Shown one piece after another: positions 21,491-58,501 of a stretch of DNA of 64,000 bases. The position numbers and the translations under genes are program-made. The notes under the pieces were generated by a model. The model was given only the letters and a program-made list of their open reading frames with translations. It was not told the DNA's origin and searched no databases. Location: the NCBI GenBank assembly GCA_964415025.1, contig CAYPXF010000005.1, positions 1,484-65,483 on the forward strand. Direction: 5' to 3'. Position 1 is the first letter of the stretch. The number at the start of each line of letters is the position of its first letter. The stretch is from an uncultured Gammaproteobacteria bacterium (GTDB lineage Bacteria > Patescibacteriota > Patescibacteriia > UBA10025 > JAHIVO01).

Positions 21491-21656
21491 GACGGAAATC
21501 CTAAACTCTAAATCCGAAACAAGCACAAATTTATAAATTACGAATCAAAAACTGTTTTAAGTATTAGGATTTAGCAATTTCCACCAAAGGAGGATCAGCC
21601 TGTGGCTGAAGAATTTGTTTCGTGCTCCGAGATTAGAATTTCGATATTAAAACGTT

Positions 21657-34775: not shown

Positions 34776-35195
34776 ATGTTTAAATCAGAACACGGCTTAT
34801 CGCTAATCCAAATCCTCATCCTGGTGGCTGTGTTTGGTTTACTGATCGGCGGCGGGTTTTTATTGCTTAATAATGAAAAAGCCAAGACCAGGGATGCTAA
34901 GCGGCTATCTGATATTACCAGAATTCAGGCCGCGTTTGAATTTCTGTACAATCAAACAGCCAGTTATACCGCGGCCGCGCAGGACGGGTGCGATCAAGCC
35001 GGTATGCTGGCAAGCCAATGTAATTTAAGCGCATATATCCCGGCCATCAGGCAGTTCCGTGATCCGGGCAAGTATCAGTATGTAGTCACTACGGTGCCGG
35101 GCGATGATGCCTATGCCGTCACCTTTCAGCTGGAAAAGGAATACTATAATCTGACGGCAGGCCAGCACGTGCTGACCCAGGACGGGATACAGTAA
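34776..35195 (+). CDS. pilin-like protein with non-canonical leader (Gln at +5)
   Basis: MFKSEHG/LSLIQILILVAVFGLLIGGG; prepilin-like hydrophobic N-terminus lacking Glu5; C-terminal Cys pair. Confidence 0.55.
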   Translation: MFKSEHGLSLIQILILVAVFGLLIGGGFLLLNNEKAKTRDAKRLSDITRIQAAFEFLYNQTASYTAAAQDGCDQAGMLASQCNLSAYIPAIRQFRDPGKYQYVVTTVPGDDAYAVTFQLEKEYYNLTAGQHVLTQDGIQ

Positions 35196-35331
35196 GAGGG
35201 CTTTAGTTGTTGGTTTTTTGGTGTTAGTTATCTTATTCGTTTTTGGTTGTTAGCATTGGACTGGAATGATCAGGATATGAGCCTCTCAACATGTTCCCAA
35301 ACAGGGTGTTTTTTGGTATACTAGAGGGACT

Positions 35332-38182: not shown

Positions 38183-39533
38183 ACATTATTCACAACGCGG
38201 TTCTGTCTTATTGTATTCACTGCTGGTGATTACACTGCTGACGGCTATTGCCATCACCGTATCTATTATCGTGGTTAATGAGATCAAGCTAAGCGCGGCC
38301 TCGGCTAATGCAACCATGGCGTATTATGCGGCCGAGTCAGGCATAGAGCGCGGATTATATGAAGTAAAAATAAACCGTGACAGTGCCGCTCTTACATCGA
38401 CACTGAATACGATTCAGGGCTTCACCGCTGACCATGATTTTGTTAATAATGCTGATTATGCCAACGATCAGTCTGATCAAGAAAGCTCCTCCATCACTAA
38501 CGAGTTTATCGTCCATAATAACTATACCCAGGCTGATTATTATGATGTCGATGATCCGTTGGATACGACGCTGCCAGATAATACGATAGTCAAATCAATC
38601 GAAATAAAAAATGGCGATACTACAAACCCTGATTCCAGCTCGTGGGCAGAAGTATCCTGGACTGCCTGGGATGATTCGGGCACATTACTGGCGTCAGACA
38701 GAGCCAGAAAAATTATCGGACCAAGCGATCTGGAAGATCCGGGCTGGACAATAAATGATTTGGATGTTTTCGACGGTGATCCGGTTGGTTACCGCATCCG
38801 TATCCGGGCCCTATTTGGCGACCTTTCATCACTTACCGTAGTGCCGTATGACACGTTTGGTTCGCAGATAACTGACCAGCTGCCATCTCACATCCGCATC
38901 AAGTCAGTGGGTGAGCGTAATAACTTTAAGCAGTCGTTGACCGCCACGGTGCCGTGGAAAGTGCCGCTGTTTGGTTTGTATGACTATGTGCTGTTCAGCG
39001 AAGGGGAAATTATGAAGACAATTATCTTGAGCCAGCCGGTGTATAGTTCTGGAACCATCGGGGTAGAGGAGGATAATACAACGGCTGGTTTATGTACAAA
39101 CTGTGCCGGCGGTAGCTCATGTGCAGATGAAGGATGGCTGGCCACATCATGCAGTCTTACTGCCTCATGCACGATCCAGGCGGCGCCTAACCCATCGTAT
39201 TGTTCGCTACCGAGCGCTGTAGATTCATTCACATTGCCGATTCCTGATGAAGTATCGGCCGGACCAGAGTTTTATATCAGTCTGCGGGAAAAGGCTACTT
39301 CTGGTACAAGTCTGGAACTAAATATCAGTGATCCGATAGAGGGTGATCTGGGTTTGGTGCACGATATTCCGGCGGACAGTGATTGGCAGACGTGCACGAT
39401 TGCCGAGTCATTCCCCTTGAGCGGGGAAACAGGACGGAGTATCATGTTCAGCAACAGGAGCGCAAATAATATAGACATTGACTGGTACCAGATCAGCTCG
39501 TATAAGATATTTGATGACTGTGAGGGAAGTTAG
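38175..39533 (+). CDS. PilX-like minor pilin / pilus tip protein
   Basis: ATG at 38175 overlaps the previous stop (ATGA); MSKHYSQRGSVLLYSLLVITLLTAIAIT...AYYAAESGIE matches the PilX N-terminal domain; the ORF-track start at 38082 would overlap the upstream gene. Confidence 0.7.
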   Translation: MSKHYSQRGSVLLYSLLVITLLTAIAITVSIIVVNEIKLSAASANATMAYYAAESGIERGLYEVKINRDSAALTSTLNTIQGFTADHDFVNNADYANDQSDQESSSITNEFIVHNNYTQADYYDVDDPLDTTLPDNTIVKSIEIKNGDTTNPDSSSWAEVSWTAWDDSGTLLASDRARKIIGPSDLEDPGWTINDLDVFDGDPVGYRIRIRALFGDLSSLTVVPYDTFGSQITDQLPSHIRIKSVGERNNFKQSLTATVPWKVPLFGLYDYVLFSEGEIMKTIILSQPVYSSGTIGVEEDNTTAGLCTNCAGGSSCADEGWLATSCSLTASCTIQAAPNPSYCSLPSAVDSFTLPIPDEVSAGPEFYISLREKATSGTSLELNISDPIEGDLGLVHDIPADSDWQTCTIAESFPLSGETGRSIMFSNRSANNIDIDWYQISSYKIFDDCEGS

Positions 39534-39703
39534 TTTGGTTGTTGGTTGTTTGATGCTGGTTTTAGAATAAAGAAGAGTGTTTTGGATGTGAGGGGTGAGT
39601 CGGGATGCGTGTTGTAAGAGGTGTGATTACTCGTCACTAACCTCCAAACTCACTGCTCACTTCGGAAGCTTACACCACACTTCCCGCGTATGAAATATTA
39701 GCT

Positions 39704-45505: not shown

Positions 45506-45579
45506 TCGGGGTGGCGGGACTTGAACCCGCGACCTCACGCACCCCATGCGTACGCGCTAGCCAACTGCGCTACACCCCG
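45506..45579 (-). tRNA. tRNA-Pro (anticodon GGG), 74 nt, no encoded CCA
   Basis: revcomp folds as acceptor CGGGGTG/CACCCCG, D arm GCGC-AGTTGGCTA-GCGC, anticodon stem TACGC/GCGTG with loop AUGGGGU (GGG at 34-36, G37), T arm GCGGG-TTCAAGT-CCCGC. Confidence 0.85.
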
Positions 45580-46517: not shown

Positions 46518-46590
46518 CATGGCTGATGATATTATTTTGGTTAATGCACAAGATAAACAAATTGGCACGGGTGAAAAAATGCCGGTGCTT
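46518..46590 (+). pseudogene. degenerate duplicate of the 5' end of idi (about 90% nt identity to 57992-58064; 1-nt insertion causes a frameshift)
   Basis: ATGGCTGATGATATTATTTTGGTTAATGCACAAGATAAACAAAATTGGCACGGGTGAAAAAATGCCGGTGC aligns with the intact idi start; identity stops exactly where a TTAGG array begins. Confidence 0.7.
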
Positions 46591-46596
46591 AAGTGA

Positions 46597-46630
46597 TTAG
46601 GTTTTAGGTGTTAAGAGGTTAGGTTTTCAG
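46597..46630 (+). repeat. TTAGGnn(n) degenerate heptamer/octamer tandem array, copy a
   Basis: gaTTAGGttTTAGGtgTTAAGaggTTAGGtt. Confidence 0.7.
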
Positions 46631-46664
46631 ACTAATAAAACCATTGAAATAGCGTCTAAATCTA

Positions 46665-46694
46665 CTGGAAAAATGGGGTGGTTTGGGGTATAAT
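46665..46694 (+). promoter_or_regulatory. repeated promoter module copy 1 (CTGGAA-18 nt-TATAAT within GGAAAAATGGGGTGGTTTGGGGTATAATA)
   Basis: near-identical 30-bp block also at 49469-49498; each lies ~30 nt upstream of a gene start. Confidence 0.5.
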
Positions 46695-46721
46695 AAGAAC
46701 ATAGATTAATAAAATAACACC

Positions 46722-47912
46722 ATGCAACAATTATTAAGAAGCATCCAGGAAATTGAAAAACTGGGCAACTATCCTTGTATCGATACCATTGAAGGTTCGC
46801 TGGGACCGAAGGTAAAAATTGACGGTGAAGATTATTATTTATTTTCTTCAAATGGGTATTTGGGGTTTTCAACTCATCCACAATGTAAAACCGCCGCAAT
46901 TAACGCGATAGAAAAGTATGGCACGGGTTCTGGTGCTTCGCGTGTTGTTTCGGGAACATATGATATACACACTAAACTTGAAGATGAGATAGCCAATTTC
47001 AAAGAAAAAGAGTCGGCCATGGTTTTGACCAGCGGATATTCGGCCAACGTAAGTCTGATACCAGTATTGGCAAACAGTTTTTCAATATTTAGCAAGAAGC
47101 CAGATTTTAAAACGATGATCTTTAGCGATGAATACAATCATGCGAGTATTATTGATGGTGTTAAATTGTCTGGATCGGCTGTTACAATATATCCGCATAA
47201 AGACATGAAGTTCTTAGAAGAAATGTTACAAAAGTATGATAGCTACCGGAAGCTCATTATTACGGATAGTATTTTTAGTATGGATGGGGACATAGCGCCT
47301 TTAGACAGAATAGTTGAACTGAAAAAAAAATATAATGCGATGCTATTAATAGATGAAGCGCACGCTACTGGCGTCATTGGTAAATACGGAAAGGGAGTTG
47401 CAAACTTTCTTAACGTGACTAAAGACGTGGATATCATAATGGGAACTTTCAGTAAGGCTTTTGGCTCTATTGGAGCATATATTGCCAGTAGTTGTGAAAT
47501 TATTAAATTACTAAAAGTTGCGGTAAGAGGGTATGTTTTTTCAACTGCACTCCCCCCCCCTGATCTGGCCGTTAGCCGAGAGTCTATAAAAATTTTGAAA
47601 GATAGTCCAGGTCTGGGCGATGAGCTTCAGAAAAAATCTACTTACCTTAGAGATTCTCTAAACAAAATAGGATTTTCGACACTTGGTAGCCAAACGCAAA
47701 TAATTCCTATTTTAATCGGAGACATTATGATAGCTTTGAAATTTCAAACTGAATTGAGGAAACGAAAAATTATCGCACCCTGCATCCAATGGCCAGCCGT
47801 ACCAAGGGATAAAAGTCGTATTAGATTCTCTGTCATGCTGACTCACTCAAAAGAGGATATAGAATACCTAATAAATTCATGCCAGAAGATTAAAAAAGAC
47901 CTACAAATATAA
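46722..47912 (+). CDS. PLP-dependent alpha-oxoamine synthase (BioF/Kbl/serine palmitoyltransferase family)
   Basis: 396 aa class II aminotransferase; PLP-lysine motif GTFSKAFGSIGAYIAS; family motifs DEAHATGVIG, SGYSANV. Confidence 0.8.
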   Translation: MQQLLRSIQEIEKLGNYPCIDTIEGSLGPKVKIDGEDYYLFSSNGYLGFSTHPQCKTAAINAIEKYGTGSGASRVVSGTYDIHTKLEDEIANFKEKESAMVLTSGYSANVSLIPVLANSFSIFSKKPDFKTMIFSDEYNHASIIDGVKLSGSAVTIYPHKDMKFLEEMLQKYDSYRKLIITDSIFSMDGDIAPLDRIVELKKKYNAMLLIDEAHATGVIGKYGKGVANFLNVTKDVDIIMGTFSKAFGSIGAYIASSCEIIKLLKVAVRGYVFSTALPPPDLAVSRESIKILKDSPGLGDELQKKSTYLRDSLNKIGFSTLGSQTQIIPILIGDIMIALKFQTELRKRKIIAPCIQWPAVPRDKSRIRFSVMLTHSKEDIEYLINSCQKIKKDLQI

Positions 47913-47927
47913 GAACCATTCAATATT

Positions 47928-49394
47928 ATGCTTGGCATCGCATTGTTATTAATCGGTATTGCTGAAATACTACTCAGCATTTTTGTATTAAAAAAGGGTT
48001 ATCAAAAAATTACTAATCTGTTATTCTTTTTCTTTGCTTTCATTACGGGTGTCTGGGTGATATCTAATTATTTAATTGGTGTTACCGAAAATATTTTCTG
48101 GCTAAAAATGGCTTACGCTCTTGGCGCGTTAATATATTCAGCCAGTTTTATTTGGTTATTAAATTTTTTATACCCAAAAATAAAAAAAACGTGGCTCTGG
48201 CTTATATTCATTATAGCTATTATCTTTTCAATTTTATCATTAACTGATGAGTTAATAATTAAAAAGGCAACAAAATTTTATTTTGGTGGTTTCGAGGGTG
48301 AATTCGGTATTTTATTTACACCCTATCTGATTTTTGCGGCATTAATGACGGTTTTAAATATTTGGTTTGTAGTCCGCGGGACTAAAATAAATATTGGCCA
48401 GAAAAAGCTACAGTTGAAATATATTACTATAGGTTTTGTAACCTTTGGGCTGGGCGCATCCTTGGCTTCATTTATTATCCCCAGCCTTGGCTATAAAGAA
48501 TTTATTCCTCTTGATTCAATATTTTCATTACCATTACTACTAGCAATTAGCTATGCCATTATTAAATATAGGTTTTTAGACATCCGCTTCATCCTCCGCA
48601 AATCCTTCATCTATGTTGGTCTTGCCGTATTCGTCTTCTTCGCCTACTACTTCGCCCTATGGCTGGATAATACTTTGTTTGGCGGGTCATACAGCATTGG
48701 CGGGTATCTTTCGGCCATTGCCATCGCCCCCCTTTTTCTCCTGGGGTTTGGCTATGTGAGCCGTTGGCTCAAGCATATCGCCAACAAATACTTTTTCACC
48801 GGTCTGTATGATTATCAGGAAGTATTAGAAACCTTCGCCAAGAGAATATCCCAGACCATTGAGCTGGATGAGGCGGTGAATGTAGTAGTAGAAACCATCC
48901 AGGGTGCCATGCGGGTAGATAACATAGCCATTGCCTTGTCAGATCCATCACATAAGATGCCCTTCCTTCTTCACAGAGTCATCGGTTTTAATAAGGAGGA
49001 ATTGGAAAATATCTGTGACCGCCAGACATTCTGCTCCTACCTCCAATCAGCCAAAAAACCAATTGTCATAGACGAACTTTTATCTGCCTCAGAAACAAAA
49101 GATAATCCCCACCTTATAAAAGACGCTAAATATCTCAAAGACCTGGGCGTGGCATTAATCCTACCCTTGGTGGTCCAAGATAATGTTAACAGCGTCTGTA
49201 TTGTAGGCAGGAAAATAACCAAAGAAGCCTATACCAAAGAAGACATTGATCTATTAACCACTCTTTCCAACCAAGCCTCGGTGGCCATTGAAAACGCCCG
49301 TCTGTATCAAGAAGTGCAGGATTTCAACCAGAACCTCCAGCAAAAAGTGGAAGACCAGACTAGGGACATCAAAGAGGCTTGTTTAGTATATTAG
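47928..49394 (+). CDS. truncated sensor histidine-kinase paralog: 6-TM sensor + GAF domain, no HisKA/HATPase
   Basis: 488 aa; the last ~265 aa are identical to residues ~225-490 of the full kinase at 51019; the ORF stops with the TAG of the first TTAGG repeat. Confidence 0.7.
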   Translation: MLGIALLLIGIAEILLSIFVLKKGYQKITNLLFFFFAFITGVWVISNYLIGVTENIFWLKMAYALGALIYSASFIWLLNFLYPKIKKTWLWLIFIIAIIFSILSLTDELIIKKATKFYFGGFEGEFGILFTPYLIFAALMTVLNIWFVVRGTKINIGQKKLQLKYITIGFVTFGLGASLASFIIPSLGYKEFIPLDSIFSLPLLLAISYAIIKYRFLDIRFILRKSFIYVGLAVFVFFAYYFALWLDNTLFGGSYSIGGYLSAIAIAPLFLLGFGYVSRWLKHIANKYFFTGLYDYQEVLETFAKRISQTIELDEAVNVVVETIQGAMRVDNIAIALSDPSHKMPFLLHRVIGFNKEELENICDRQTFCSYLQSAKKPIVIDELLSASETKDNPHLIKDAKYLKDLGVALILPLVVQDNVNSVCIVGRKITKEAYTKEDIDLLTTLSNQASVAIENARLYQEVQDFNQNLQQKVEDQTRDIKEACLVY

Positions 49395-49445
49395 GATATT
49401 AGGTTTTTGTGGTTAGTGTGCTTGGAAGTTAGTTGGTAGGTAAAC
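49391..49445 (+). repeat. TTAGGnn(n) tandem array, copy b
   Basis: aTTAGGataTTAGGtttttgtggTTAGtgtgcTTGGaagTTAGttggTAGGtaaa. Confidence 0.7.
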
Positions 49446-49468
49446 TAGTGAAATATAGCCTAATTATA

Positions 49469-49498
49469 TTGGAAAAATGGGGTTGCTTGGGGTATAAT
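49469..49498 (+). promoter_or_regulatory. repeated promoter module copy 2 (TTGGAA-18 nt-TATAAT)
   Basis: GGAAAAATGGGGTTGCTTGGGGTATAATA. Confidence 0.5.
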
Positions 49499-49525
49499 AG
49501 GGGTACTATAGAATAAATCAACGTT

Positions 49526-50353
49526 ATGTTTAAAGATTACTATATTAAACAATTAAGAATAAGAGGAAATGGAAAGTATAAATTGTTTGTACTGGAAAGC
49601 TTTAATGAATCAAAGAAACTATACAATATCCGAAATTTTATTTTACAAAATATTGATCAAATAATTAATGAGGGTTGGGGGAAATTTAGTAAAGATTTTA
49701 TTAGAAAACATATTATTTTTGCCAAGCGATTACTGGTATTAAGAAATGGGGAAAAAATTATAGCTATTGCCGCAGCTAGTGAAAAAAAAATCATTAATAA
49801 GGCTATGCTTTATTTAGAATTTACTGTAGTTCACCCCAACTTTAGGGGATTTAATCTTCTTTCTAAATTAAACTATATTTTGATTAGAGATGCTTTTCTA
49901 GGTAATTTATTTGTTAAGGGGGGGGGATTAAGTCTAGAAGTAATAACAATTACGCCCAATATGAGAGTGCTGGCGACTTTAGCAAAGGTCGCTAGTTTTA
50001 TTTACCCGAACCCTTTTGAGGCAGATGATAACGGTCGAATCTCGCAGGCAGATGATACAACATATAAAATTGCACAGGAAATTATTACGACGAGTGATGA
50101 TCCGAGTAGGCAAATTGAACGAGAGGGCCTAGTTCTTAAAGGTTCGTACAGAAATACCCCATGGCTTATACACGATCAGCCCCTACGACATTATAACGAA
50201 AATATAAATTTATTTTGTAAAAAATATATTGAATATGATAAAAGGAGCGATAAAGAATTCATTATTAGAGCAATAATTACTCCTAAAAGTTTTTTAAAAT
50301 TATTTTATAAGGTTTTCAAAAGACGCTTGTCTAATGGTAATGGGGAAAAATAA
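49526..50353 (+). CDS. hypothetical protein, possibly a GNAT-fold acyltransferase
   Basis: 275 aa; weak GNAT motif-A-like block VVHPNFRGFNLLSKL. Confidence 0.4.
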   Translation: MFKDYYIKQLRIRGNGKYKLFVLESFNESKKLYNIRNFILQNIDQIINEGWGKFSKDFIRKHIIFAKRLLVLRNGEKIIAIAAASEKKIINKAMLYLEFTVVHPNFRGFNLLSKLNYILIRDAFLGNLFVKGGGLSLEVITITPNMRVLATLAKVASFIYPNPFEADDNGRISQADDTTYKIAQEIITTSDDPSRQIEREGLVLKGSYRNTPWLIHDQPLRHYNENINLFCKKYIEYDKRSDKEFIIRAIITPKSFLKLFYKVFKRRLSNGNGEK

Positions 50354-50367
50354 TACTACGCTAAACT

Positions 50368-51009
50368 ATGAATAAAAAAAATTCTATAGAAAAAATAAGT
50401 GAGCAACAATTTGACAAGTGGGCGGTTAAATATGAAAAAGGTGTTTGGAATAAATATTTTACAAAAAGCATAAAACATGCAGTGCAATTAGCGAACATTC
50501 AAAAAACATCCAAGGTACTTGATTTGGGCTGTGGCACAGGCAAATTGAGTATTTTGTTAACAGAAAATCCATTTATAGAGCAGATAATTGGAATGGATAT
50601 TTCACAAAATATGATAAGGCAGGCAAAGTACAAACAGAAATATTTTAGACTTGGTGATAAAGTAAATTTTATGGTTGGAAATTCAAATAATCTTAATTTT
50701 GATAATGGCTACTTTGATTATGTATTCTGTCTTAATTCATTTCATCATTATCCCAGTCAAAGCAAAGTACTGGAAGAGGTTTTTAGAGTAATGAAAAGTG
50801 GAGGTCGGTTTATACTCCTGGATCCTTTTAGGGATAATATTTTACGAAAAACGTGGGCCGTGGCTTTAAAGAAAATTTTCAATGAAGATTACGCAGATTA
50901 CCAGACAAAGTCTGCTATTCAAGAAATGTTATTAAATTGTGGATTTCATAATTTACACCAAGAAACTTATTTATACTTTACATTGTTTACTATATCTGAA
51001 AAAAATTAA
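50368..51009 (+). CDS. class I SAM-dependent methyltransferase
   Basis: motif I VLDLGCGTGKLS; motif post-I GMDIS; Rossmann-fold spacing. Confidence 0.8.
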   Translation: MNKKNSIEKISEQQFDKWAVKYEKGVWNKYFTKSIKHAVQLANIQKTSKVLDLGCGTGKLSILLTENPFIEQIIGMDISQNMIRQAKYKQKYFRLGDKVNFMVGNSNNLNFDNGYFDYVFCLNSFHHYPSQSKVLEEVFRVMKSGGRFILLDPFRDNILRKTWAVALKKIFNEDYADYQTKSAIQEMLLNCGFHNLHQETYLYFTLFTISEKN

Positions 51010-51018
51010 AATAAGCTT

Positions 51019-53262
51019 ATGGATATCTCTATTTTAATATTAGTCAGCGTCACTAATTTGACACTTGGTTATTTAACGATTCATCAAGGCATTAAAAAGA
51101 AAATAAATCTTATTTTTTTTCTCCTTACATTATTTATTATCCAGTGGTCGGTTTTTAATTATTTTGGCGATTATTTTGCCGAGGTCAGTATAAATGAAAA
51201 AGTTTCAACAATTTATACCAGACTAACATATTTAGCCAGCTCGATTATTGCTGGTCTTTTCTTTGTTTTTGTTATTTTTTTTCCACGACAGCGGAAAAAA
51301 CTTTCAAAGATGCTTACATCAGGATTAATAATTGCTAGCATTGTTGTTATTACATTATCATTCACCACCCACATGGTAGAAAAAGTTAACGTTGTTGACA
51401 GTCAAGTAAATGTTAGTACGGGGTCTTTATTTTTTATATTTATTATCTATTTCGCCGTATTAATGGTTTCTTCTTTTGTTATTCTTATCAGAAAATATAT
51501 TTTATCCGAGGGAATAGAAAAAATACAAATCCGCTATTTTTTCTTAGGAACGTTTTTAGCAACATTGTTTGCGTCAATAACTAATATTTTTATCCCTCTC
51601 TTGACAGGCAGTTTTCAGGCATCGCGATTTGGACCGTATTTCACATTATTTTTCGTTGCCTTCACCGCCTACGCCATCATCAAACACCGCTTTCTCGACA
51701 TCCGCTTCATCCTTCGCAAATCCTTCATCTACGTAGGATTGGCAGTTTTCGTCTCCTTCGCCTACTACTTCGCCCTATGGCTGGATAATACTTTGTTTGG
51801 CGGGTCATACAGCATTGGCGGGTATCTTTCGGCCATTGCCATCGCCCCCCTTTTTCTCCTGGGGTTTGGCTATGTGAGCCGTTGGCTCAAGCATATCGCC
51901 AACAAATACTTTTTCACCGGTCTGTATGATTATCAGGAAGTATTAGAAACCTTCGCCAAGAGAATATCCCAGACCATTGAGCTGGATGAGGCGGTGAATG
52001 TAGTAGTAGAAACCATCCAGGGTGCCATGCGGGTAGATAACATAGCCATTGCCTTGTCAGATCCATCACATAAGATGCCCTTCCTTCTTCACAGAGTCAT
52101 CGGTTTTAATAAGGAGGAATTGGAAAATATCTGTGACCGCCAGACATTCTGCTCCTACCTCCAATCAGCCAAAAAACCAATTGTCATAGACGAACTTTTA
52201 TCTGCCTCAGAAACAAAAGATAATCCCCACCTTATAAAAGACGCTAAATATCTCAAAGACCTGGGCGTGGCATTAATCCTACCCTTGGTGGTCCAAGATA
52301 ATGTTAACAGCGTCTGTATTGTAGGCAGGAAAATAACCAAAGAAGCCTATACCAAAGAAGACATTGATCTATTAACCACTCTTTCCAACCAAGCCTCGGT
52401 GGCCATTGAAAACGCCCGTCTGTATCAAGAAGTGCAGGATTTCAACCAGAACCTCCAGCAAAAAGTGGAAGACCAAACCAGGGACATCAAAGAGGCCAAC
52501 AAACGACTGGAAAAACTCCTGCAGATCCGTTCGGAATTTCTGGATATTGCCAGCCATCAATTAAGAACTCCTGTCTCCATGATCCGCGGGGTATTGTCCA
52601 TGATTAGGGAAGGGGATCTGGAAAAATTACCTAAAGCCAAACAGAAAAAATTTATTGAAAATGCTTGGGAAAAAGGGGCCAAGCTGGATACCATTATCAA
52701 CGACATCCTGGCCGCTTCGGAATTGGACACCCAGAAATTTCAGGTAGAGAAAGACACCCCGGCTATTCAGTTGGAAGACGTGGTTGATCAAGTGGTCAAA
52801 GAATCCCAGATGGAAGCGGAGCAGAGGAAGATAGAATTAAAATGGTACAAACCTAAAACCATTCTTCCCAAAATTCAAGGACATACCAAATTTTTAAATG
52901 AGGCCATTTCCAATCTGGTTAGTAATGCCTTGAAATATACCCCTTCAACTGAGATGGTAAAAGAGGCCAGAACTCAGCGTAAACAAAAAGGCGTGGTAGA
53001 AGTAGAGGTTGAGCAAAAGGATAATAATGTTGTGGTCAAAGTTAAAGATAACGGCATCGGCATTCCCAAAGATGAAATAAAAAATCTGTTCGACAAGTTC
53101 GCTCGTGCCTCCAATGCCACGGCCATGTATACGGACGGCTCGGGTCTCGGACTATTCATCGTTAAAGAGATCGTTGAAGGGCACAAAGGAAAAGTCTGGG
53201 TGGAGAGTGAGGAGGGTAAGGGGTCAACATTTTATGTTAGTTTGCCGGTGGCGAATGATTAG
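51019..53262 (+). CDS. sensor histidine kinase (7-TM sensor, GAF, HisKA, HATPase_c)
   Basis: 747 aa; H-box SHQLRTPVS, N-box NLVSNALKYT, G-boxes DNGIGIP and GSGLGL; the stop TAG is part of a TTAGG repeat. Confidence 0.9.
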   Translation: MDISILILVSVTNLTLGYLTIHQGIKKKINLIFFLLTLFIIQWSVFNYFGDYFAEVSINEKVSTIYTRLTYLASSIIAGLFFVFVIFFPRQRKKLSKMLTSGLIIASIVVITLSFTTHMVEKVNVVDSQVNVSTGSLFFIFIIYFAVLMVSSFVILIRKYILSEGIEKIQIRYFFLGTFLATLFASITNIFIPLLTGSFQASRFGPYFTLFFVAFTAYAIIKHRFLDIRFILRKSFIYVGLAVFVSFAYYFALWLDNTLFGGSYSIGGYLSAIAIAPLFLLGFGYVSRWLKHIANKYFFTGLYDYQEVLETFAKRISQTIELDEAVNVVVETIQGAMRVDNIAIALSDPSHKMPFLLHRVIGFNKEELENICDRQTFCSYLQSAKKPIVIDELLSASETKDNPHLIKDAKYLKDLGVALILPLVVQDNVNSVCIVGRKITKEAYTKEDIDLLTTLSNQASVAIENARLYQEVQDFNQNLQQKVEDQTRDIKEANKRLEKLLQIRSEFLDIASHQLRTPVSMIRGVLSMIREGDLEKLPKAKQKKFIENAWEKGAKLDTIINDILAASELDTQKFQVEKDTPAIQLEDVVDQVVKESQMEAEQRKIELKWYKPKTILPKIQGHTKFLNEAISNLVSNALKYTPSTEMVKEARTQRKQKGVVEVEVEQKDNNVVVKVKDNGIGIPKDEIKNLFDKFARASNATAMYTDGSGLGLFIVKEIVEGHKGKVWVESEEGKGSTFYVSLPVAND

Positions 53263-53315
53263 GCAGTTAGGTCTTAGTAATTTGGTAATAGGTTCAGAAA
53301 TTTGAAATTAGGTAT
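53259..53315 (+). repeat. TTAGGnn(n) tandem array, copy c
   Basis: gaTTAGGcagTTAGGtcTTAGtaatttggtaaTAGGttcagaaatttgaaaTTAGGta. Confidence 0.7.
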
Positions 53316-53360
53316 TACTAAAATAAAAAATAAATAAAAATACTAAATTATTATGAATTT

Positions 53361-53507
53361 ATGGCTTTAATTAAAAAAGATTCAAAAACACTGGTTGATT
53401 ATATCAAAACTGAGATTGAACAGGCAGTAAGTAATGAAATCAAGCCTCTGTGTCAAGATATTAATGCGCATCAGAGCTCGGTGGATAAATATATTAAACA
53501 AACATAG
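53361..53507 (+). CDS. possible 48-aa small protein
   Basis: ATG-to-TAG ORF in an otherwise gene-free 260-nt gap; no RBS; below the ORF-track cutoff. Confidence 0.2.
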   Translation: MALIKKDSKTLVDYIKTEIEQAVSNEIKPLCQDINAHQSSVDKYIKQT

Positions 53508-53580
53508 GATTGGCATCAAGAGTTTATTGTTAGTAAAGGCATAGCCACTGAAAAAAAACTCTAACCATAAAATTTCAACA

Positions 53581-53985
53581 ATGAAATTGAATAAAAAATC
53601 ATCTGATAAATTATGGGGTGAAACAGGCCCCTATTCACAAGTCAATCTTATCATGCAAGAAAGAATTCTTGATGATAAGGTAAGTCGCGTTTTCGCTATA
53701 GTTGAGGTGGAAATAAATCCATTGACTTTTGAAATTATCAAACAAAACAGGAAGGCGGACATTTTTAAAAATGACATAAAGATTCAACAATTGCTTGACA
53801 CCGCGGAATATAGAGGCATTGCCTTTGGTTATGTATCGTCAGCTTATGAAAAACAGTTAACTGGCCCAGAGATTATGAAAGAAGCGGAAAAGAGCCTTGA
53901 TTATACACGGAAAACCGTTATTAAGATGCATAAATTTGTGATGGATTTGTTGGATGTAGACAACAAAAAGCAAAAAGATAGATAG
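53581..53985 (+). CDS. hypothetical protein (134 aa)
   Basis: ORF only. Confidence 0.5.
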   Translation: MKLNKKSSDKLWGETGPYSQVNLIMQERILDDKVSRVFAIVEVEINPLTFEIIKQNRKADIFKNDIKIQQLLDTAEYRGIAFGYVSSAYEKQLTGPEIMKEAEKSLDYTRKTVIKMHKFVMDLLDVDNKKQKDR

Positions 53986-54002
53986 AATTAACTAACGATC
54001 AT

Positions 54003-54060
54003 AACCTATTAACCTAAAACCTACCCCCTATAACCTAATCGCCTAATCCCTAAAACCTAA
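54003..54060 (-). repeat. TTAGGnn(n) tandem array, copy d (inverted, reads CCTAA on plus), abutting the start codon of the REC gene
   Basis: aaCCTAttaaCCTAAaaCCTAcccCCTAtaaCCTAAtcgCCTAAtcCCTAAaaCCTAATG. Confidence 0.7.
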
Positions 54061-54437
54061 TGACTACAAAACCTAAAATACTTTTAATCGAAGACGATTC
54101 GGATCAAATATTTCTCTACCAAAGCAAATTTGAAATTGAGGGATTTGATTTTATTTCCAGTCGGGATGGTGATGCAGGCATTACCAAGGCCAAATCAGAA
54201 AAACCCGATTGCATCCTGTTGGACTTGGTGTTGATTAATGAAAGCGGAATTGAAGTGTTAGAAAAAATAAAAAAAGACCAAAATATTAAACATATACCGG
54301 TTATTATTCTCACCAATTTGGTGCAAAAAGATAACGAGCAAAAAGCTATAGAGTTAGGAGCCGCTGATTTTCTTATCAAAACAAATATGATGCCGTCGGA
54401 TGTGGTGAAGAGAGTTAGGAAGTTGTTAAAAATATAG
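54060..54437 (+). CDS. stand-alone REC-domain response regulator
   Basis: 125 aa; KILLIEDDSDQIFLY...LLDLVLINESGIEVL...ILTNLVQKDN. Confidence 0.8.
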   Translation: MTTKPKILLIEDDSDQIFLYQSKFEIEGFDFISSRDGDAGITKAKSEKPDCILLDLVLINESGIEVLEKIKKDQNIKHIPVIILTNLVQKDNEQKAIELGAADFLIKTNMMPSDVVKRVRKLLKI

Positions 54438-54566
54438 TTAAGGTAGCTTGTTATTAAGCTATGATTTTTTGTATGATTAAATTTATATTTGAAGTGTTTG
54501 ACATTATTATATTAATAATGTATAATGGAAGTAAGATAAAGTATTACTTCCATCAAATATATCTTT

Positions 54567-55139
54567 ATGGATAGTTTAATAACTATATTATATAGGTCTA
54601 GTAAGACTATTTTGACTAATAAGGATATTGCTTTGATGTGGGGAGAAACCCATCAAGGTAATCTTAAATCTAAAATTGCCTATTATGTTAAACGTGGATT
54701 TTTAATCCGTCTAACGAGAGGTGTATTTGCCAAGGATAAAAATTATAATCCAAAAGAATTAGCCACCAGCATATATACCCCTTCATATATTAGTTTTGAA
54801 ACCGTACTTCGGGAATCGGGAAATATTTTTCAACATTATGATACAATTTTTGTGGCTGGTCCGTGGCCACTGTCAAAAAAAATTAATAAATATGCTTTCA
54901 CATTCAGACGATTAAAAGACAGTGTATTATATAACGCCGCCGGGATTAAAAATGAAAATAATTACAGCATGGCAACCCCAGAGCGAGCTTTTTTGGATAT
55001 GATTTATTTATTCCCAAGATATTATTTTGATAATCTGGCGATGATTGATTGGCAAAAGTGCTTTGAACTGGTAAATATTTATGGTAACCAGCAGTTGACC
55101 AAACGGCTGGTAAAATATCAGCAACAATATGTTAAATAA
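54567..55139 (+). CDS. AbiEi-family antitoxin/transcriptional regulator (type IV TA / abortive infection)
   Basis: 190 aa; wHTH-like N-terminus; YISFETVLRESGNI and ERAFLDMIYL blocks typical of AbiEi; 11-nt overlap with the downstream gene. Confidence 0.7.
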   Translation: MDSLITILYRSSKTILTNKDIALMWGETHQGNLKSKIAYYVKRGFLIRLTRGVFAKDKNYNPKELATSIYTPSYISFETVLRESGNIFQHYDTIFVAGPWPLSKKINKYAFTFRRLKDSVLYNAAGIKNENNYSMATPERAFLDMIYLFPRYYFDNLAMIDWQKCFELVNIYGNQQLTKRLVKYQQQYVK

Positions 55140-55857
55140 AAATAAACACCAGTTAATTATGGGGCAGATTTTAAGGGACATTTATGCCGATGTTTCAATT
55201 TCTTCATTGTTAGGTTTAAAAGGTGATACCGGTGCATATTTTTTCTACAGCCTTTCTAGATTTTCGGTTGATTTAGATTTTGATTTGTTTTTTACTAACG
55301 AATCAACACAAAAGTTAATGTTTGAAAAAATCAAAAACATAACAAAGAAGTATGGTAAAATTAAAAATAGCTACATCAAAAGAAATACTATCTTTTCACT
55401 TCTTTCATACGGTGATACCGATCATAATATAAAAATAGAAATAAATACCAGAATGTTAATGCCAGACATCAGGCAATACTACGAGATGAAGGAATATTTG
55501 GGAATTTCTATGTTAGTCGGCAAAAAGGATTATATGTTTGCCAGCAAATTAGTCGCCTTAACAAATTGCCGTACCACAGCGATGCGTGATATTTACGATA
55601 TTTGGTATTTCGCCAAAAATAATTGGGATATCAGCGAGGAGGTAATTTTGACGAGAATCAAGAAGACCATTCCCGAGCATTTGGGCGACTGTATTTCGGT
55701 AATCGAAAAAATAAAAGACAATGAAATTTTACAAGGTCTGGGTGAACTTTTGAATGATAAAGAAAAGATATGGGTAAAAAAGAATTTGAGAAAAGATGTA
55801 ATATTTCATCTTAAAAATTATCAAACTGTATTAGCCCACCGCTCTGGCAATGAATGA
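55129..55857 (+). CDS. AbiEii/AbiGii-family nucleotidyltransferase toxin
   Basis: 242 aa; NTase-fold motif LKGDTGAYFFYSLSRFSVDLDFD (GS..D.D); TA-style overlap with the upstream gene. Confidence 0.7.
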   Translation: MLNKNKHQLIMGQILRDIYADVSISSLLGLKGDTGAYFFYSLSRFSVDLDFDLFFTNESTQKLMFEKIKNITKKYGKIKNSYIKRNTIFSLLSYGDTDHNIKIEINTRMLMPDIRQYYEMKEYLGISMLVGKKDYMFASKLVALTNCRTTAMRDIYDIWYFAKNNWDISEEVILTRIKKTIPEHLGDCISVIEKIKDNEILQGLGELLNDKEKIWVKKNLRKDVIFHLKNYQTVLAHRSGNE

Positions 55858-55964
55858 AAAAATGCATTATAATAAAATAGCTATGAAAAAAATACTACTT
55901 TCCTTTCGGCAAGCTTAGGGTCAGTATACGGGGCAAGAGGTGGCGTTAAAAAACTATTAAGATT

Positions 55965-56348
55965 ATGAATAACAAAGCGAACAAAAAAACCATTCTGTTG
56001 ATTGAAGACGACCAAGATCAAATACTACTCTACCAGGCTAAATTTGAGCTGGAAGGATATGCATTTATCTCTGCGGAAAATGGTCAAAAAGGACTTGAAC
56101 TGGCCACCAAGGAAAAACCCAACCTCATATTGATTGACTTATTGATGGCCGGCATGGGTGGTATTGAAGTATTGGAGAAACTGAAAGACAATCCGGAAAC
56201 AAAGAACATCCCCGCGGTCATCGTCACCAACTTAGACAAGCAGGATTTAGCCAAAAAAGCTATGGCTTTGGGCGCCCAGGATTTCATCGTCAAATCCAGC
56301 GTACCACTGAGGGAAATGATGTCTCGGATAAAAGAGTTTCTGAAATAG
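55965..56348 (+). CDS. stand-alone REC-domain response regulator
   Basis: 127 aa; TILLIEDDQDQILLY...LIDLLMAGMGGIEVL...IVTNLDKQD. Confidence 0.8.
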   Translation: MNNKANKKTILLIEDDQDQILLYQAKFELEGYAFISAENGQKGLELATKEKPNLILIDLLMAGMGGIEVLEKLKDNPETKNIPAVIVTNLDKQDLAKKAMALGAQDFIVKSSVPLREMMSRIKEFLK

Positions 56349-56364
56349 CTTTAATTAATATATA

Positions 56365-56392
56365 AAAAAGCTCGCCATCCGGCGAGTTTTTT
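56365..56392. terminator. bidirectional rho-independent terminator between convergent genes
   Basis: AAAAAG-CTCGCC-atcc-GGCGAG-TTTTTT. Confidence 0.7.
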
Positions 56393-56414
56393 GATTCCTG
56401 TAATTCTTATTTGT

Positions 56415-56825
56415 TTATTTCTTCGTTTTGTACTTTTTTATTAATCCCTCCATAATTTCCACCAGCTTTTCCGGTGTAGTCGTATATTTAACGATAAACG
56501 TATCAGCATGTAGCTGCTCGGCTTTGGTTTTGTATTCAGCGCTATCCCAGTTGGTGAGGATCATGACCGGCACCGGTTTGTAGTCTTTTTTCTTGCGGAA
56601 ATACTCCAGGATCATCCAGCATTCTGAATCGGGCAGTACTACGTCCAGGATTAACGCTTTAGGGTGCTCGTTCCGCAAGGCCAGCACGGCGGAAATTGCT
56701 GTCCGGGCCATGATCGGGGTGTATCCTTCAATAACGAATTTCTGCCGGAACATTTCTGACAGAAATTTATCATCTTCCACGAAGAGGATTTTGCCCTTGT
56801 TCGGTTTTTTACCTTTTTTTGGCAT
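56415..56825 (-). CDS. stand-alone REC-domain response regulator
   Basis: 136 aa; KILFVEDDKFLSEMF...ILDVVLPDSECWMIL...ILTNWDSAEY. Confidence 0.8.
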   Translation of the reverse strand: MPKKGKKPNKGKILFVEDDKFLSEMFRQKFVIEGYTPIMARTAISAVLALRNEHPKALILDVVLPDSECWMILEYFRKKKDYKPVPVMILTNWDSAEYKTKAEQLHADTFIVKYTTTPEKLVEIMEGLIKKYKTKK

Positions 56826-56830
56826 GTGGT

Positions 56831-57166
56831 TTATTTACTGAGTATTTTCTGCAGGTACCTGTATATAATTTTACCATGCGGACTGCGTTTATTCAATCGC
56901 TTGAGAAACAGCTTGGCTTCTTTTTTCTTGGCAATATCTGGAATGGTACCCAGTTTCAGAAGTCCGTCGAAAACAAAGATTTTGTAAATTTCTTCCTCGG
57001 ATAATCCGAGTATCCTGAACGCTTTAATGGCTGTTTTTTCCGATGGCTGACGCTGTTCTTTTTCGATACGAAACAGCGAGATGCGGTTAATGCCGAGCTT
57101 TTTGGAAAGCTCCATAACGCCCATCCCTTGTTCGGTGCGTAGTATTTTTATCAGTTCGCCAAGCAT
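56831..57166 (-). CDS. XRE-family helix-turn-helix transcriptional regulator
   Basis: 111 aa; ILRTEQGMGVMELSKKLGINRISLFRIE HTH_3 pattern; 5 nt upstream of the REC gene on the same strand. Confidence 0.75.
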   Translation of the reverse strand: MLGELIKILRTEQGMGVMELSKKLGINRISLFRIEKEQRQPSEKTAIKAFRILGLSEEEIYKIFVFDGLLKLGTIPDIAKKKEAKLFLKRLNKRSPHGKIIYRYLQKILSK

Positions 57167-57231
57167 AGTTGTATAGACAGTATATCATTTGGCGTGTCCT
57201 CTGGCGAGAGGGTGGGGTGTGGATAAGTTGC

Positions 57232-57262
57232 CTTGACAGGCAACATGGGGTGATATAAAGTA
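57232..57262 (+). promoter_or_regulatory. promoter with extended -10 (TTGACA ... TGaTATAAA) inside a GTTGCC/GGCAAC inverted repeat
   Basis: seen directly in the divergent intergenic region upstream of 57295. Confidence 0.4.
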
Positions 57263-57294
57263 GTTGGTTATATATGTTACCTAAATAGGCAACT

Positions 57295-57894
57295 ATGGAT
57301 ATAGGTCAATACAATCTTCAGCAAAAAAGGGTTTCCCCAGAAGGACTGTTTGCACGCATATCTCGGGAAATGCAGGTGAAAATAAATTGCTGTAAACTAT
57401 GCTTTTTAATGCAGGATGCAAATTCGACTAATTTTATTACTGTCTATACAAAAACCCACGATCGCCTCATCATAACTAAAAAAGAAATTGAGGCCTTAGA
57501 ACAGGAGTCAAGGGAAACAGTTATTATGTATCCCTTGCAGTTATTGCGCAAGAATAAGTCTGGTAAATGGTATTTTATGAATAAAACATACTGGAGCATT
57601 AAACTTAAAAAAATATTCGCCATACTGCCAATTTACGATGACAATACAATAATTTGCCTAGTTGTTTTTTTAGATCAAAATATTAAGAGTAAATTAATTA
57701 GTAACTATTCTTATATCACGCTATTGCGAAGAGAAATAACATACTGCATAAAAGCAATTATGCTTTATAACCGTTCCATTGCAAGAATCGTAGAAACAAG
57801 AGCTGGCATTAAACAAAATCCGTCATATCGAACAAACTATTTTATTAAAAAACAAGATTTAGTCCTGATTGTAGATAAAATAAGATTTTGGTAA
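57295..57894 (+). CDS. hypothetical protein (199 aa)
   Basis: ORF only; divergent from the XRE-REC operon. Confidence 0.5.
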   Translation: MDIGQYNLQQKRVSPEGLFARISREMQVKINCCKLCFLMQDANSTNFITVYTKTHDRLIITKKEIEALEQESRETVIMYPLQLLRKNKSGKWYFMNKTYWSIKLKKIFAILPIYDDNTIICLVVFLDQNIKSKLISNYSYITLLRREITYCIKAIMLYNRSIARIVETRAGIKQNPSYRTNYFIKKQDLVLIVDKIRFW

Positions 57895-57991
57895 TATTAT
57901 ATTTAAGTAGACCCATCTTGCTTCGAATGTTAGATTGACTACTGTCTATATATTATAGGAATATAAATTATTTTAACATTACTTATTAATT

Positions 57992-58501
57992 ATGCCCGAT
58001 GATATTATTTTGGTTAATGCACAAGATGAACAAATCGGTACGGGTGAAAAAATGCCGGTGCATGAGCAAGGGTTGCTGCACCGCGCCTTTTCAGTGCTTA
58101 TTTTTAATAGCAATGGAGAGCTGCTGCTCCAGCAGCGGGCTAAAAGCAAGTACCATTGCGGTGGACTGTGGACCAATACAGTCTGCAGCCATCCCCGGTC
58201 GGGGGAGAGCATACTAGAGGCTGCCCACCGCCGGCTGCAGGAGGAAATGGGTTTTAACTGTGTCCTGCGGGAAACAGACAAGTTTACGTACCGCGCCGAG
58301 TTTGACAACGGCCTGATCGAGCATGAGATAGATCATGTGGTTACCGGCCTTTTTGACGGGAATCCGGAGATTAATCCAGACGAGGCTGATGCCTATCGGT
58401 GGATATCATTGCCAGACCTGCGGCATGACATGAAAACCAGTCCGGAAAAGTATACCCCGTGGTTTATAAAAATTATCGGCGAACGTTTATTCATTCGTTA
58501 G
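57992..58501 (+). CDS. idi: isopentenyl-diphosphate delta-isomerase type 1 (NUDIX fold)
   Basis: 169 aa; LHRAFSVLIFNSNGELLLQQRA...WTNTVCSHP...E.E type-1 IDI signature. Confidence 0.85.
   Translation: MPDDIILVNAQDEQIGTGEKMPVHEQGLLHRAFSVLIFNSNGELLLQQRAKSKYHCGGLWTNTVCSHPRSGESILEAAHRRLQEEMGFNCVLRETDKFTYRAEFDNGLIEHEIDHVVTGLFDGNPEINPDEADAYRWISLPDLRHDMKTSPEKYTPWFIKIIGERLFIR

Follow-up and report, generated by a model that had tools for sequence, protein, structure and literature searches.

Heptanucleotide units are in excess among the simple sequence repeats of prokaryotes, as reported by Mrazek in 2007 according to the account given in PMC4679880. Described cases include long simple sequence repeats (LSSR), the STRR of cyanobacteria, the TAACTGA repeats of Beggiatoaceae, cyanobacteria, and Bacteroidetes (MacGregor 2015, PMC4679880) and the heptanucleotide arrays of Geobacter (PMC2700814). 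Here, we analyzed a 64-kb stretch of contig CAYPXF010000005.1, referred to below as the window, in which four arrays of a degenerate TTAGG unit (arrays 1 to 4; Table 1) lie at gene boundaries inside a genomic island. Their nearest described objects are the intergenic heptanucleotide repeats, i.e., the LSSR, STRR, TAACTGA, and Geobacter arrays. Those repeats occur in 2 to 17 copies, almost exclusively in non-coding DNA and with a sporadic phylogenetic distribution, and the TTAGG arrays share with them the 7-nt period, the non-coding site, the position adjoining gene ends, and stop codons in all frames. Whereas the described repeats are near-perfect copies that are dispersed and located in 5′ leaders, the TTAGG arrays consist of a conserved pentamer with free 2- to 3-nt spacers, are confined to the island within the window, and mark truncated-gene junctions while preceding promoters.

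The arrays also resemble the RNA operators of Bacillus. HutP reads UAG motifs 7 nt apart (U498, U505, and U512), and TRAP reads repeated triplets (PMC2425495); like these operators, the arrays present repeated motifs centered on (U/G)AG, with non-conserved spacers, in unstructured RNA. Unlike in those systems, no homologue of HutP or TRAP was found among the island proteins, the arrays comprise 5 to 8 units rather than 3+3 or 11, one of them has the opposite polarity, they overlap neither a terminator/antiterminator nor a ribosome-binding site, and array 4 abuts an ATG as the complementary CCUAA strand. A further likeness is to 23S rRNA intervening-sequence modules and phage intercistronic hairpins, in which complementary arms bracket an insert and abut the flanking genes; arrays 3 and 4 likewise bracket a segment and are predicted to pair. 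In contrast to the intervening-sequence modules, this segment carries no PF05635 gene as its cargo, and homologues of its open reading frame (ORF) ORF134 elsewhere are not bracketed by arrays.

With respect to mobile elements, the arrays are like integron attC sites in that they separate successive cassettes in one orientation and that GTTAGGT fits the GTTRRRY core; however, they consist solely of direct repeats, an inverse core, a hairpin, and intI are all lacking, and each cassette carries a promoter (46666 and 49469). As in transposons and insertion sequences, inverted repeats (arrays 1 and 4) occupy terminal positions, but no transposase was found among the ORFs of 46.7 to 54.0 kb, nor was a target-site duplication. 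In complex class 1 integrons formed by ISCR one-ended capture, and in Campbell-type integration, a duplicated homologous segment flanks the insert, and its first copy is variably truncated against a fixed element end, with homologous recombination involved. The island resembles this layout, but it has no rolling-circle transposase or integrase, and its fixed end is a simple-sequence array rather than oriIS. Judged by the hallmarks of each class, the arrays do not qualify as attC sites, transposon ends, contingency repeats, or HutP or TRAP operators.

Degenerate TTAGG arrays at gene boundaries

In all four arrays the unit takes the form of a degenerate TTAGG followed by 2 to 3 nt. Unit spacing is 7 to 8 nt in 35 of 36 intervals, and TRF assigned a period of 7 to array 4 and of 8 to array 2. 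All four lie between ORFs, each touching a stop or start codon. This placement, noted in the initial annotation, was read directly from the sequence, and the arrays are beyond chance: three phased chains of at least 5 units were observed, compared to 0.065 expected from 200 local Markov shuffles. Likewise, TTAGGNNTTAGG at ≤1 mismatch gave 13 matches, 8 of them inside the arrays, compared to 3.9 ± 1.9 in shuffles. No TTAGG array was found in the remaining 52 kb of the window. The statement that the arrays occur nowhere else in the window therefore stands for TTAGG chains but not for related heptamer tracts, which are found at 35192-35253, 39515-39569, and 21491-21656. The first two of these are G/T-rich, heptamer-like, and located right after stop codons in core-genome spacers; at 39515-39703, the G/T tract is followed by a C/A-rich arm ahead of the next ATG. 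The tract at 21491-21656 is a small CCTAA/TTAGG inverted pair downstream of a 3236-aa ORF.

The onsets of arrays 1 and 2 coincide with the ends of homology. Array 1 reads TTAAG-TGA-TTAGG-TT-TTAGG-TG-TTAAG-AGG-TTAGG (46589-46623), followed by a tail to 46630; it begins where the truncated copy of idi, idi′, loses its identity to idi (at 46588), and the TGA of idi′ is followed directly by TTAGG. Array 2 is the most degenerate of the four, with 3 units at ≤1 mismatch, the others being of the TTAGT, TTGGA, or TAGGT type, and with G+T of at least 83% across the stretch; it begins where the identity of the truncated sensor kinase HK′ to the full kinase HK stops (49378/49379). HK′ terminates in TAT-TAG, its stop codon (49392-49394) lying within array 2, HK terminates in GAT-TAG, with the stop codon (53260-53262) within array 3, and array 4 leads into the REC1 ATG at 54060 (ccTAATG). 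The junctions described earlier, namely, kinase stops inside array units, loss of idi′ identity at the first unit, and the contact of array 4 with an ATG, were all recovered. The first unit does supply each stop, as had been claimed, but not as a special property. Since 7 is not divisible by 3, three units suffice to place TAG in every frame, and the same is true of TAA on the opposite strand; a TAG every 7 to 8 nt closes every frame, so any TAG repeat of period 7 or 8 supplies stop codons automatically.

Arrays 1 and 4 form an inverted repeat of 34 nt with 82% complementarity that brackets 7.4 kb, and reverse-complemented array 4 is ~87% identical to array 1 over 31 nt. Each array contains 0 to 3 C residues and is unstructured on its own (fold energy of 0 to −6.5 kcal/mol). 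G-quadruplexes were considered and rejected: none appeared in ViennaRNA folds with the G-quadruplex option, and most G runs are merely GG. Rho utilization is not favored either: the antisense strand is C-rich and G-poor, but the heptamer cores of other Patescibacteria are not. An Rfam scan of the window matched tRNA-Pro only.

The arrays as candidate cassette-head boundaries of a recombining island

The island (46519-58066, 11.4 kb) is inserted in the 5′ end of idi, holds all four arrays, and has a GC content of 0.32 to 0.39 compared to ~0.48 in the flanks. It is flanked by a 75-nt direct repeat whose left copy is 91% identical to 57992-58066, and full idi is restored at its right end with an island-borne promoter. 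tRNA-Pro (45506-45579, minus strand) lies 1 kb upstream. Among the hallmarks of integrase-mediated islands, a repeat of the target-gene end and an atypical GC content are present, and an integrase at one end is absent. Within the island, HK′ is a 7TM-GAF sensor kinase without the kinase core, while HK has the full 7TM-GAF-HisKA-HATPase architecture. The two are 97.6% identical over 828 nt (HK 51669-52496 and HK′ 48551-49378), and the perfect 710-nt identical core within this tract (48640-49350 and 51758-52468) indicates recent gene conversion between them. Two Logan assemblies break exactly at the end of the identical HK′/HK tract (52446). No hairpin terminators were found between the cassettes or at arrays 1 to 3.

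We tentatively interpret the arrays as cassette-head boundary elements of a recombining island, an interpretation that we consider plausible though somewhat short of probable. In this model, a signalling island would have been acquired horizontally, and each forward array would form the upstream edge of a cassette composed of the array, 50 to 70 nt, a sigma70-like promoter, biosynthetic genes, and a membrane sensor kinase. Recombination would multiply, remove, and rearrange the cassettes through two types of join. The first would be homologous recombination or gene conversion in the near-identical middle of the kinase or, for the whole island, in the 5′ end of idi; the second would be an illegitimate join at the array, whose many phase-shifted TTAGG copies would offer microhomology, and the array itself may promote or fix this join. 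The right side of the array would be retained because the promoter lies there, and with the promoter side kept and the join placed at the array, the upstream remnant, be it a cut kinase or 25 idi codons, would end flush with the first unit. The arrays would also insulate the next cassette from upstream translation by closing every frame. Array 4 is an inverted near-copy of array 1.

Related loci carry the signature expected of such boundaries. The named relatives of the kinase (P0001) recovered by protein search are Patescibacteria, and the cluster of biosynthetic genes, kinase, two REC genes, a reversed REC gene with an XRE gene, and a small ORF recurs in other Patescibacteria with 1 to 5 cassettes. 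The head of a cassette recurs as well, in the order of truncated gene, TTAGG-type array, 51 to 73 nt, sigma70-like promoter, and next cassette. The upstream kinase is cut at at least 6 different residues (Table 1), always flush with the array, and the orthologous aminotransferase cassette is preceded by a truncated kinase in locus L093 and by idi′ in the window. Loci L088 and L089, from two near-identical populations, share 6310 nt at 99.65% identity and cease to match at the left edge of array d; they differ by one cassette, with a full kinase in one and a cut kinase plus an extra cassette in the other. Junctions a and b lie within the natural codons of the H-box, TTAAG/CTTAG, which gives microhomology with the array unit. 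With its varied kinase cut points, the divergence of L088 and L089 at an array edge, and two microhomology junctions, this pattern supports the proposal in the initial annotation that arrays at module junctions are recombination scars or hotspots, and that proposal appears to have been largely right.

Several observations weigh against the boundary interpretation. The L088/L089 difference is explicable by homologous recombination between kinase paralogues alone, without the array; microhomology is present at only 2 to 3 of the 6 junctions; and arrays are missing at some related heads (L002, L085, and L119), so that neither a junction nor a promoter depends on the array. Regarding the joining mechanism, no integrase, transposase, recombinase, or remnant thereof was found in 44.6 to 58.0 kb, which covers the island and the stretch from tRNA-Pro, and coverage of the source genome was limited to the 64-kb window. 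The contrast in conservation between core and spacer described below points to a recognized motif, which this interpretation does not name.

The related loci likewise yielded no recombinase or transposase, and no inverted arrays. These negatives bear on the alternative that the arrays are the ends of mobile cassettes, either att-like sites or terminal inverted repeats, moved by a dedicated system analogous to an integron or a transposon whose recombinase is encoded elsewhere in the genome; we judge this very improbable. The inverted repeat of arrays 1 and 4 around 7.4 kb, the direct-repeat arrays separating successive cassettes, the signature of one fixed and one variable end at at least 6 junctions, and the copy of the idi target carried by the island would all be in keeping with it. 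However, besides the missing recombinase and the lack of inverted arrays in relatives, the flanks (GGTGC|TTAAG versus CCTAA|TGACT) show no target-site duplication, the array sequences vary from copy to copy unlike conserved ends, there are no inverted core sites of the attC type, and the cassettes carry individual promoters.

The initial annotation had further suggested that variation in repeat number could phase-vary expression. As short tandem repeats at gene ends, the arrays could in principle be contingency loci in which such changes switch kinase or REC expression, but this is scarcely credible, and the suggestion was not supported. Degenerate units disfavor slippage; the arrays lie upstream of the −35 box, outside the −35/−10 spacer, and outside coding sequence save for the stop codon; and with TAG in all frames, a change of length cannot restore a frame. 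Moreover, array length is conserved: type a arrays are identical in 5 contigs, type b arrays are of equal length in 4, and type d arrays are identical in 2, while neither array 3 nor array 4 differs between SRR7048227 and SRR7048225. No length differences were found among contigs of the same type or among three assemblies of the window's organism.

If the arrays do fix cassette boundaries, they would show how ultra-small, recombinase-poor Patescibacteria diversify pairs of signal synthase and sensor, with up to five cassettes sharing one kinase core and gene conversion keeping the joint region identical. As a separate observation, modular cassettes of biosynthetic genes and a 7TM-GAF sensor kinase are seen at L118 4552-19993, in L088/L089, and at 46722-53262 of the window; the HisKA/ATPase core is retained by the last kinase only, and the biosynthetic genes encode alpha-oxoamine synthase, FeeM/LuxI-like, ThiF, and methyltransferase proteins. 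The locus looks like a quorum-sensing-like, sensor-swapping locus in Patescibacteria.

Conserved core and free spacers

Conservation within the units was assessed in eight arrays comprising 44 units. The core has a mismatch rate of 0.068 per position, while the spacers, which alternate between lengths of 2 and 3 nt, include 22 distinct sequences among 36, and only 1 of 28 adjacent pairs is identical. Simulated neutral decay under the same detection rule gives an expectation of 64% identical adjacent spacers at that core mismatch. Units of these arrays are not near-identical as in simple-sequence arrays, the pentamer core alone being conserved, and adjacent units seldom share spacers and thus bear no mark of recent single-unit slippage. 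Of the 44 units, 40 contain TAG, at intervals of 7 to 8 nt. From these comparisons, the pentamer core appears to be either selected or regenerated, and the far better preservation of TTAGG than of the spacers hints at a recognized motif.

A rival explanation starts from this motif. The arrays might be recognition sites for a putative oligomeric nucleic-acid-binding factor, acting on RNA, like HutP or TRAP, which read NAG triplets separated by free spacers, or on single- or double-stranded DNA, and controlling read-through, termination, or promoter activity; their coincidence with junctions would result from selection that keeps the array while upstream DNA is deleted. We consider this unlikely, though it accounts for several features. 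A conserved core with free spacers cannot have arisen from a tandem duplication that simply decayed, UAG recurs every 7 to 8 nt as in the UAG spacing of HutP, the arrays are C-poor and unstructured alone, a promoter always follows them at a distance of 51 to 73 nt, hairpin terminators do not separate the cassettes, and the TTAGG core has been retained at the heads of cassettes in lineages whose kinases share only 47 to 62% identity. On the other hand, no match to HutP, TRAP, or another RNA-binding Pfam family was found among the island proteins, the distance from array to promoter is variable and the unit spacing irregular, related cassettes work without arrays, and array 4 is in the opposite orientation. 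The initial annotation had also proposed repeated binding sites for a local regulator, with which the conserved core would agree; the local candidates considered did not fit. ORF134 was rejected as a HutP- or TRAP-like binder, its AlphaFold model being confident (pLDDT 87) but without a neighbor in the PDB (best Foldseek E value of 0.24, TM ≤0.36). XRE was rejected as the array binder since its own operator palindromes, GTTRCC-N6-GGYAAC, differ from the arrays and have only TAGG/CCTA in common with them. The REC proteins have no DNA-binding domain.

A variant that joins both ideas would make the arrays the cis element, with its conserved pentamer and free 2- to 3-nt spacers, of an undescribed Patescibacteria cassette system, read by a putative oligomeric binder and serving both to insulate cassettes and to define a fixed end for excision and rejoining; we regard this as rather improbable. 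Were it true, the sensor domain fused to a single kinase core could be swapped, giving a functional counterpart of integrons or of pilin-type cassette switching that works through heptamer arrays.

Heptamer arrays beyond the island

The TTAGG core itself is not widespread: in 80 distant kinase loci (1.3 Mb) there were practically no TTAGG arrays, so the core is lineage-specific, and the idea that TTAGG arrays are a phylum-wide trait of kinase loci was discarded. Heptamer arrays of other cores are common. Among arrays with at least 3 copies in 1.63 Mb of Patescibacteria-type loci, period 7 was the most frequent (n = 84), followed by periods 6 (n = 33), 9 (n = 24), and 8 (n = 23). Although ~85% of this DNA is coding, 67 of 78 unique arrays of period 7 or 8 (86%) lie outside ORFs; 26 touch a stop codon and 16 a start codon. 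Complementary heptamer arrays form short intergenic hairpins in Patescibacteria loci, and four PF05635 (23S rRNA IVP) genes are bracketed by complementary heptamer arrays that abut the upstream stop and the downstream ATG, with a different core at every site (Table 1).

Viral contigs were scanned with the pattern (TTAGGNN)x3+TTAGG, which returned at least 137 arrays. Among the matches listed, 64 of 137 are mixed, i.e., with G/T/A-rich spacers as in the window, and none of these is in an open frame; the mixed arrays have their starts on stop codons or close to them. Again among the matches listed, a CCTAA arm lies no more than 300 nt downstream in 15 of 60 cases and upstream in 3, and 6 of the 15 downstream arms end at an ATG. 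The fraction of mixed, non-coding arrays among the matches listed is 47% for TTAGG and 13% and 28% for control cores. In contigs L161, L176, L141, L154, and L143, long G-arms with a TTAGG core are paired with CCTAA C-arms between genes; L161 encodes a tape-measure protein like that of Flavobacterium phages, and L176 shows the layout of stop, G-arm, loop, C-arm, GGAGG, and ATG three times.

The initial annotation had overlooked that heptamer arrays are general to the spacers of Patescibacteria and to phage contigs, which lowers the uniqueness of the island arrays. As part of the boundary interpretation taken as a whole, and with the same reserve, we see the island arrays as a TTAGG-core version of the degenerate 7- to 8-nt arrays that are the commonest tandem repeat of Patescibacteria intergenic DNA. 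The same generality suits a different explanation, that the arrays are neutral filler produced by polymerase slippage in 7-nt steps, a bias known from prokaryotes, in selection-free DNA at junctions, with the flush position arising from deletion in a streamlined genome. This would fit the dominance of many-core, mostly intergenic period-7 arrays among Patescibacteria tandem repeats, the heptanucleotide excess reported earlier for prokaryotes, the abundance of heptamer arrays with unrelated pentamer cores in viral contigs (among the matches listed), and the related heads without arrays. Against it, the contrast between core and spacer is unlike decayed slippage products, spacers are seldom common to adjacent units, a strong deletion bias should remove 40 to 60 nt of junk too, the same core persists at homologous heads of divergent genomes, and the order of G-arm then C-arm is biased 15:3 in phage contigs (among the matches listed). 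We rate neutral filler as unlikely, to the same degree as the binding-factor explanation. Even if it were correct, the caution would remain that stop-supplying repeats are automatic for any TAG repeat of period 7.

We found no description of heptamer spacer arrays for the phylum Patescibacteria in the literature searched. In the spacers of Patescibacteria, degenerate heptamer arrays dominate among the tandem repeats; they tend to lie flush with stops and starts, sometimes form complementary arms around inserted genes, and are under-described. They have implications for gene calling, operon structure, and the control of translation in compact, Shine-Dalgarno-poor genomes.

Predicted pairing of arrays 3 and 4

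Folding predicts that array 3 pairs with array 4 across the 690 nt that they bracket. The minimum-free-energy fold of an 861-nt RNA contains a stem of 26 bp between 53257-53293 and 54012-54048, and the ensemble expectation is 28.5 pairs. The duplex energy of −36.3 kcal/mol compares to −16.7 ± 3.8 kcal/mol for shuffled array 4. If this stem forms in vivo, it would bridge the kinase stop and the REC start in the order of stop, G-arm, loop, C-arm, and start seen in phage contigs and in other Patescibacteria spacers, and it may couple or process the kinase-REC transcript.

Between the two arrays lie what is left of a small coiled-coil ORF (48 codons, 53361-53507) and ORF134 (53581-53985), which encodes a widely conserved protein. 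ORF134 belongs to a family of ~126 aa with 95 homologues of 45 to 81% identity in Patescibacteria and Peregrinibacteria; elsewhere, these adjoin PemK, Zeta-toxin, Zincin_1, and AAA_15 genes. ORF134 was rejected as the cargo of an array-flanked mobile module, its 95 homologues lying in toxin-antitoxin or defense-like contexts without heptamer arrays.

Other features of the island and related loci

Table 1. Features of the window and of related loci (coordinates are those of the window unless a locus is named; kinase cuts are given by the preceding residues)
Feature	Position	Strand	Remarks
idi′ fragment	46519-46596	+	First 25 idi codons plus TGA; left copy of the 75-nt direct repeat
Array 1	46589-46630	+	5 TTAGG/TTAAG units; head of cassette A
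Conserved head of cassette A	46638-46695	+	~58 nt, 83% identical to 49442-49499
Promoter-like box, cassette A	46666-46694	+	TGGAAA-17-TATAAT
Cassette A	46722-49394	+	Alpha-oxoamine synthase 46722-47912; HK′ 47928-49394
Array 2	49383-49445	+	Degenerate; head of cassette B
Promoter-like box, cassette B	49469-49498	+	TTGGAA-18-TATAAT
Cassette B	49526-53262	+	275-aa orphan ORF, SAM methyltransferase, HK 51019-53262
Array 3	53259-53315	+	G-arm, 5 units; onset at the kinase stop codon
Segment between arrays 3 and 4	53361-53985	+	Coiled-coil ORF remnant and ORF134
Array 4	54003-54060	− (C-arm on + strand)	8 units; runs into the REC1 ATG
Conserved cluster core	54060-57894		REC1, AbiEi/AbiEii, REC2, terminator, REC3(−), XRE(−), palindromes, orf199
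REC1	54060-54437	+	ATG adjoins array 4
Terminator	56371-56386		After REC2
Intact idi (NUDIX)	57992-58501	+	First 75 nt form the right repeat copy
Kinase cut, type a (L086-type)	After ASHQL		Five contigs
Kinase cut, type b (L086-type)	After ASHQ(LR)		Four contigs
Kinase cut, type c (L086-type)	After LDIAS		
Kinase cut, type d (L086-type)	After SQTIKLDE		
Kinase cut in the window (HK′)	After DIKEA		
Kinase cut in L118	After DFTTNL		Five heads
Kinase fragment in L004			Kinase C-terminal fragment next to ATTAGGTTTTAGGG, then promoter
Array-bracketed PF05635 genes	L013 3627-4090, 12572-12969; L053 1508-1952; L118 3182-3674		

In the conserved core of the cluster, an AbiEi/AbiEii-type toxin-antitoxin pair (54567-55857) is inserted between REC1 and REC2. 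Its promoter is perfect (TTGACA-17-TATAAT, 54498-54526), and the pair is missing from the related clusters L001, L002, and L004. In the same three clusters, two palindromes of the window are conserved, at 57227-57244 and 57276-57293; GTTGCCTTGACAGGCAAC overlaps the −35 TTGACA, and GTTACCTAAATAGGCAAC stops 1 nt before the orf199 ATG. Together, they probably constitute an XRE operator governing orf199.

Beside a related cluster, at L119 5230-5720, lies a tRNA-like sequence in which pieces of the anticodon arm are duplicated and long inserts of GC-rich DNA occur; it may be an intron-containing tRNA, and such tRNAs have been reported for Patescibacteria (PMC13011429). A GC-rich stem-like element (gaagac..gggg/cccc..) lies upstream of a REC gene at 55858-55964, and it is also present at L001 12400-12490 and L002 13320-13390, i.e., in three genomes, suggesting that it may be a conserved leader structure.

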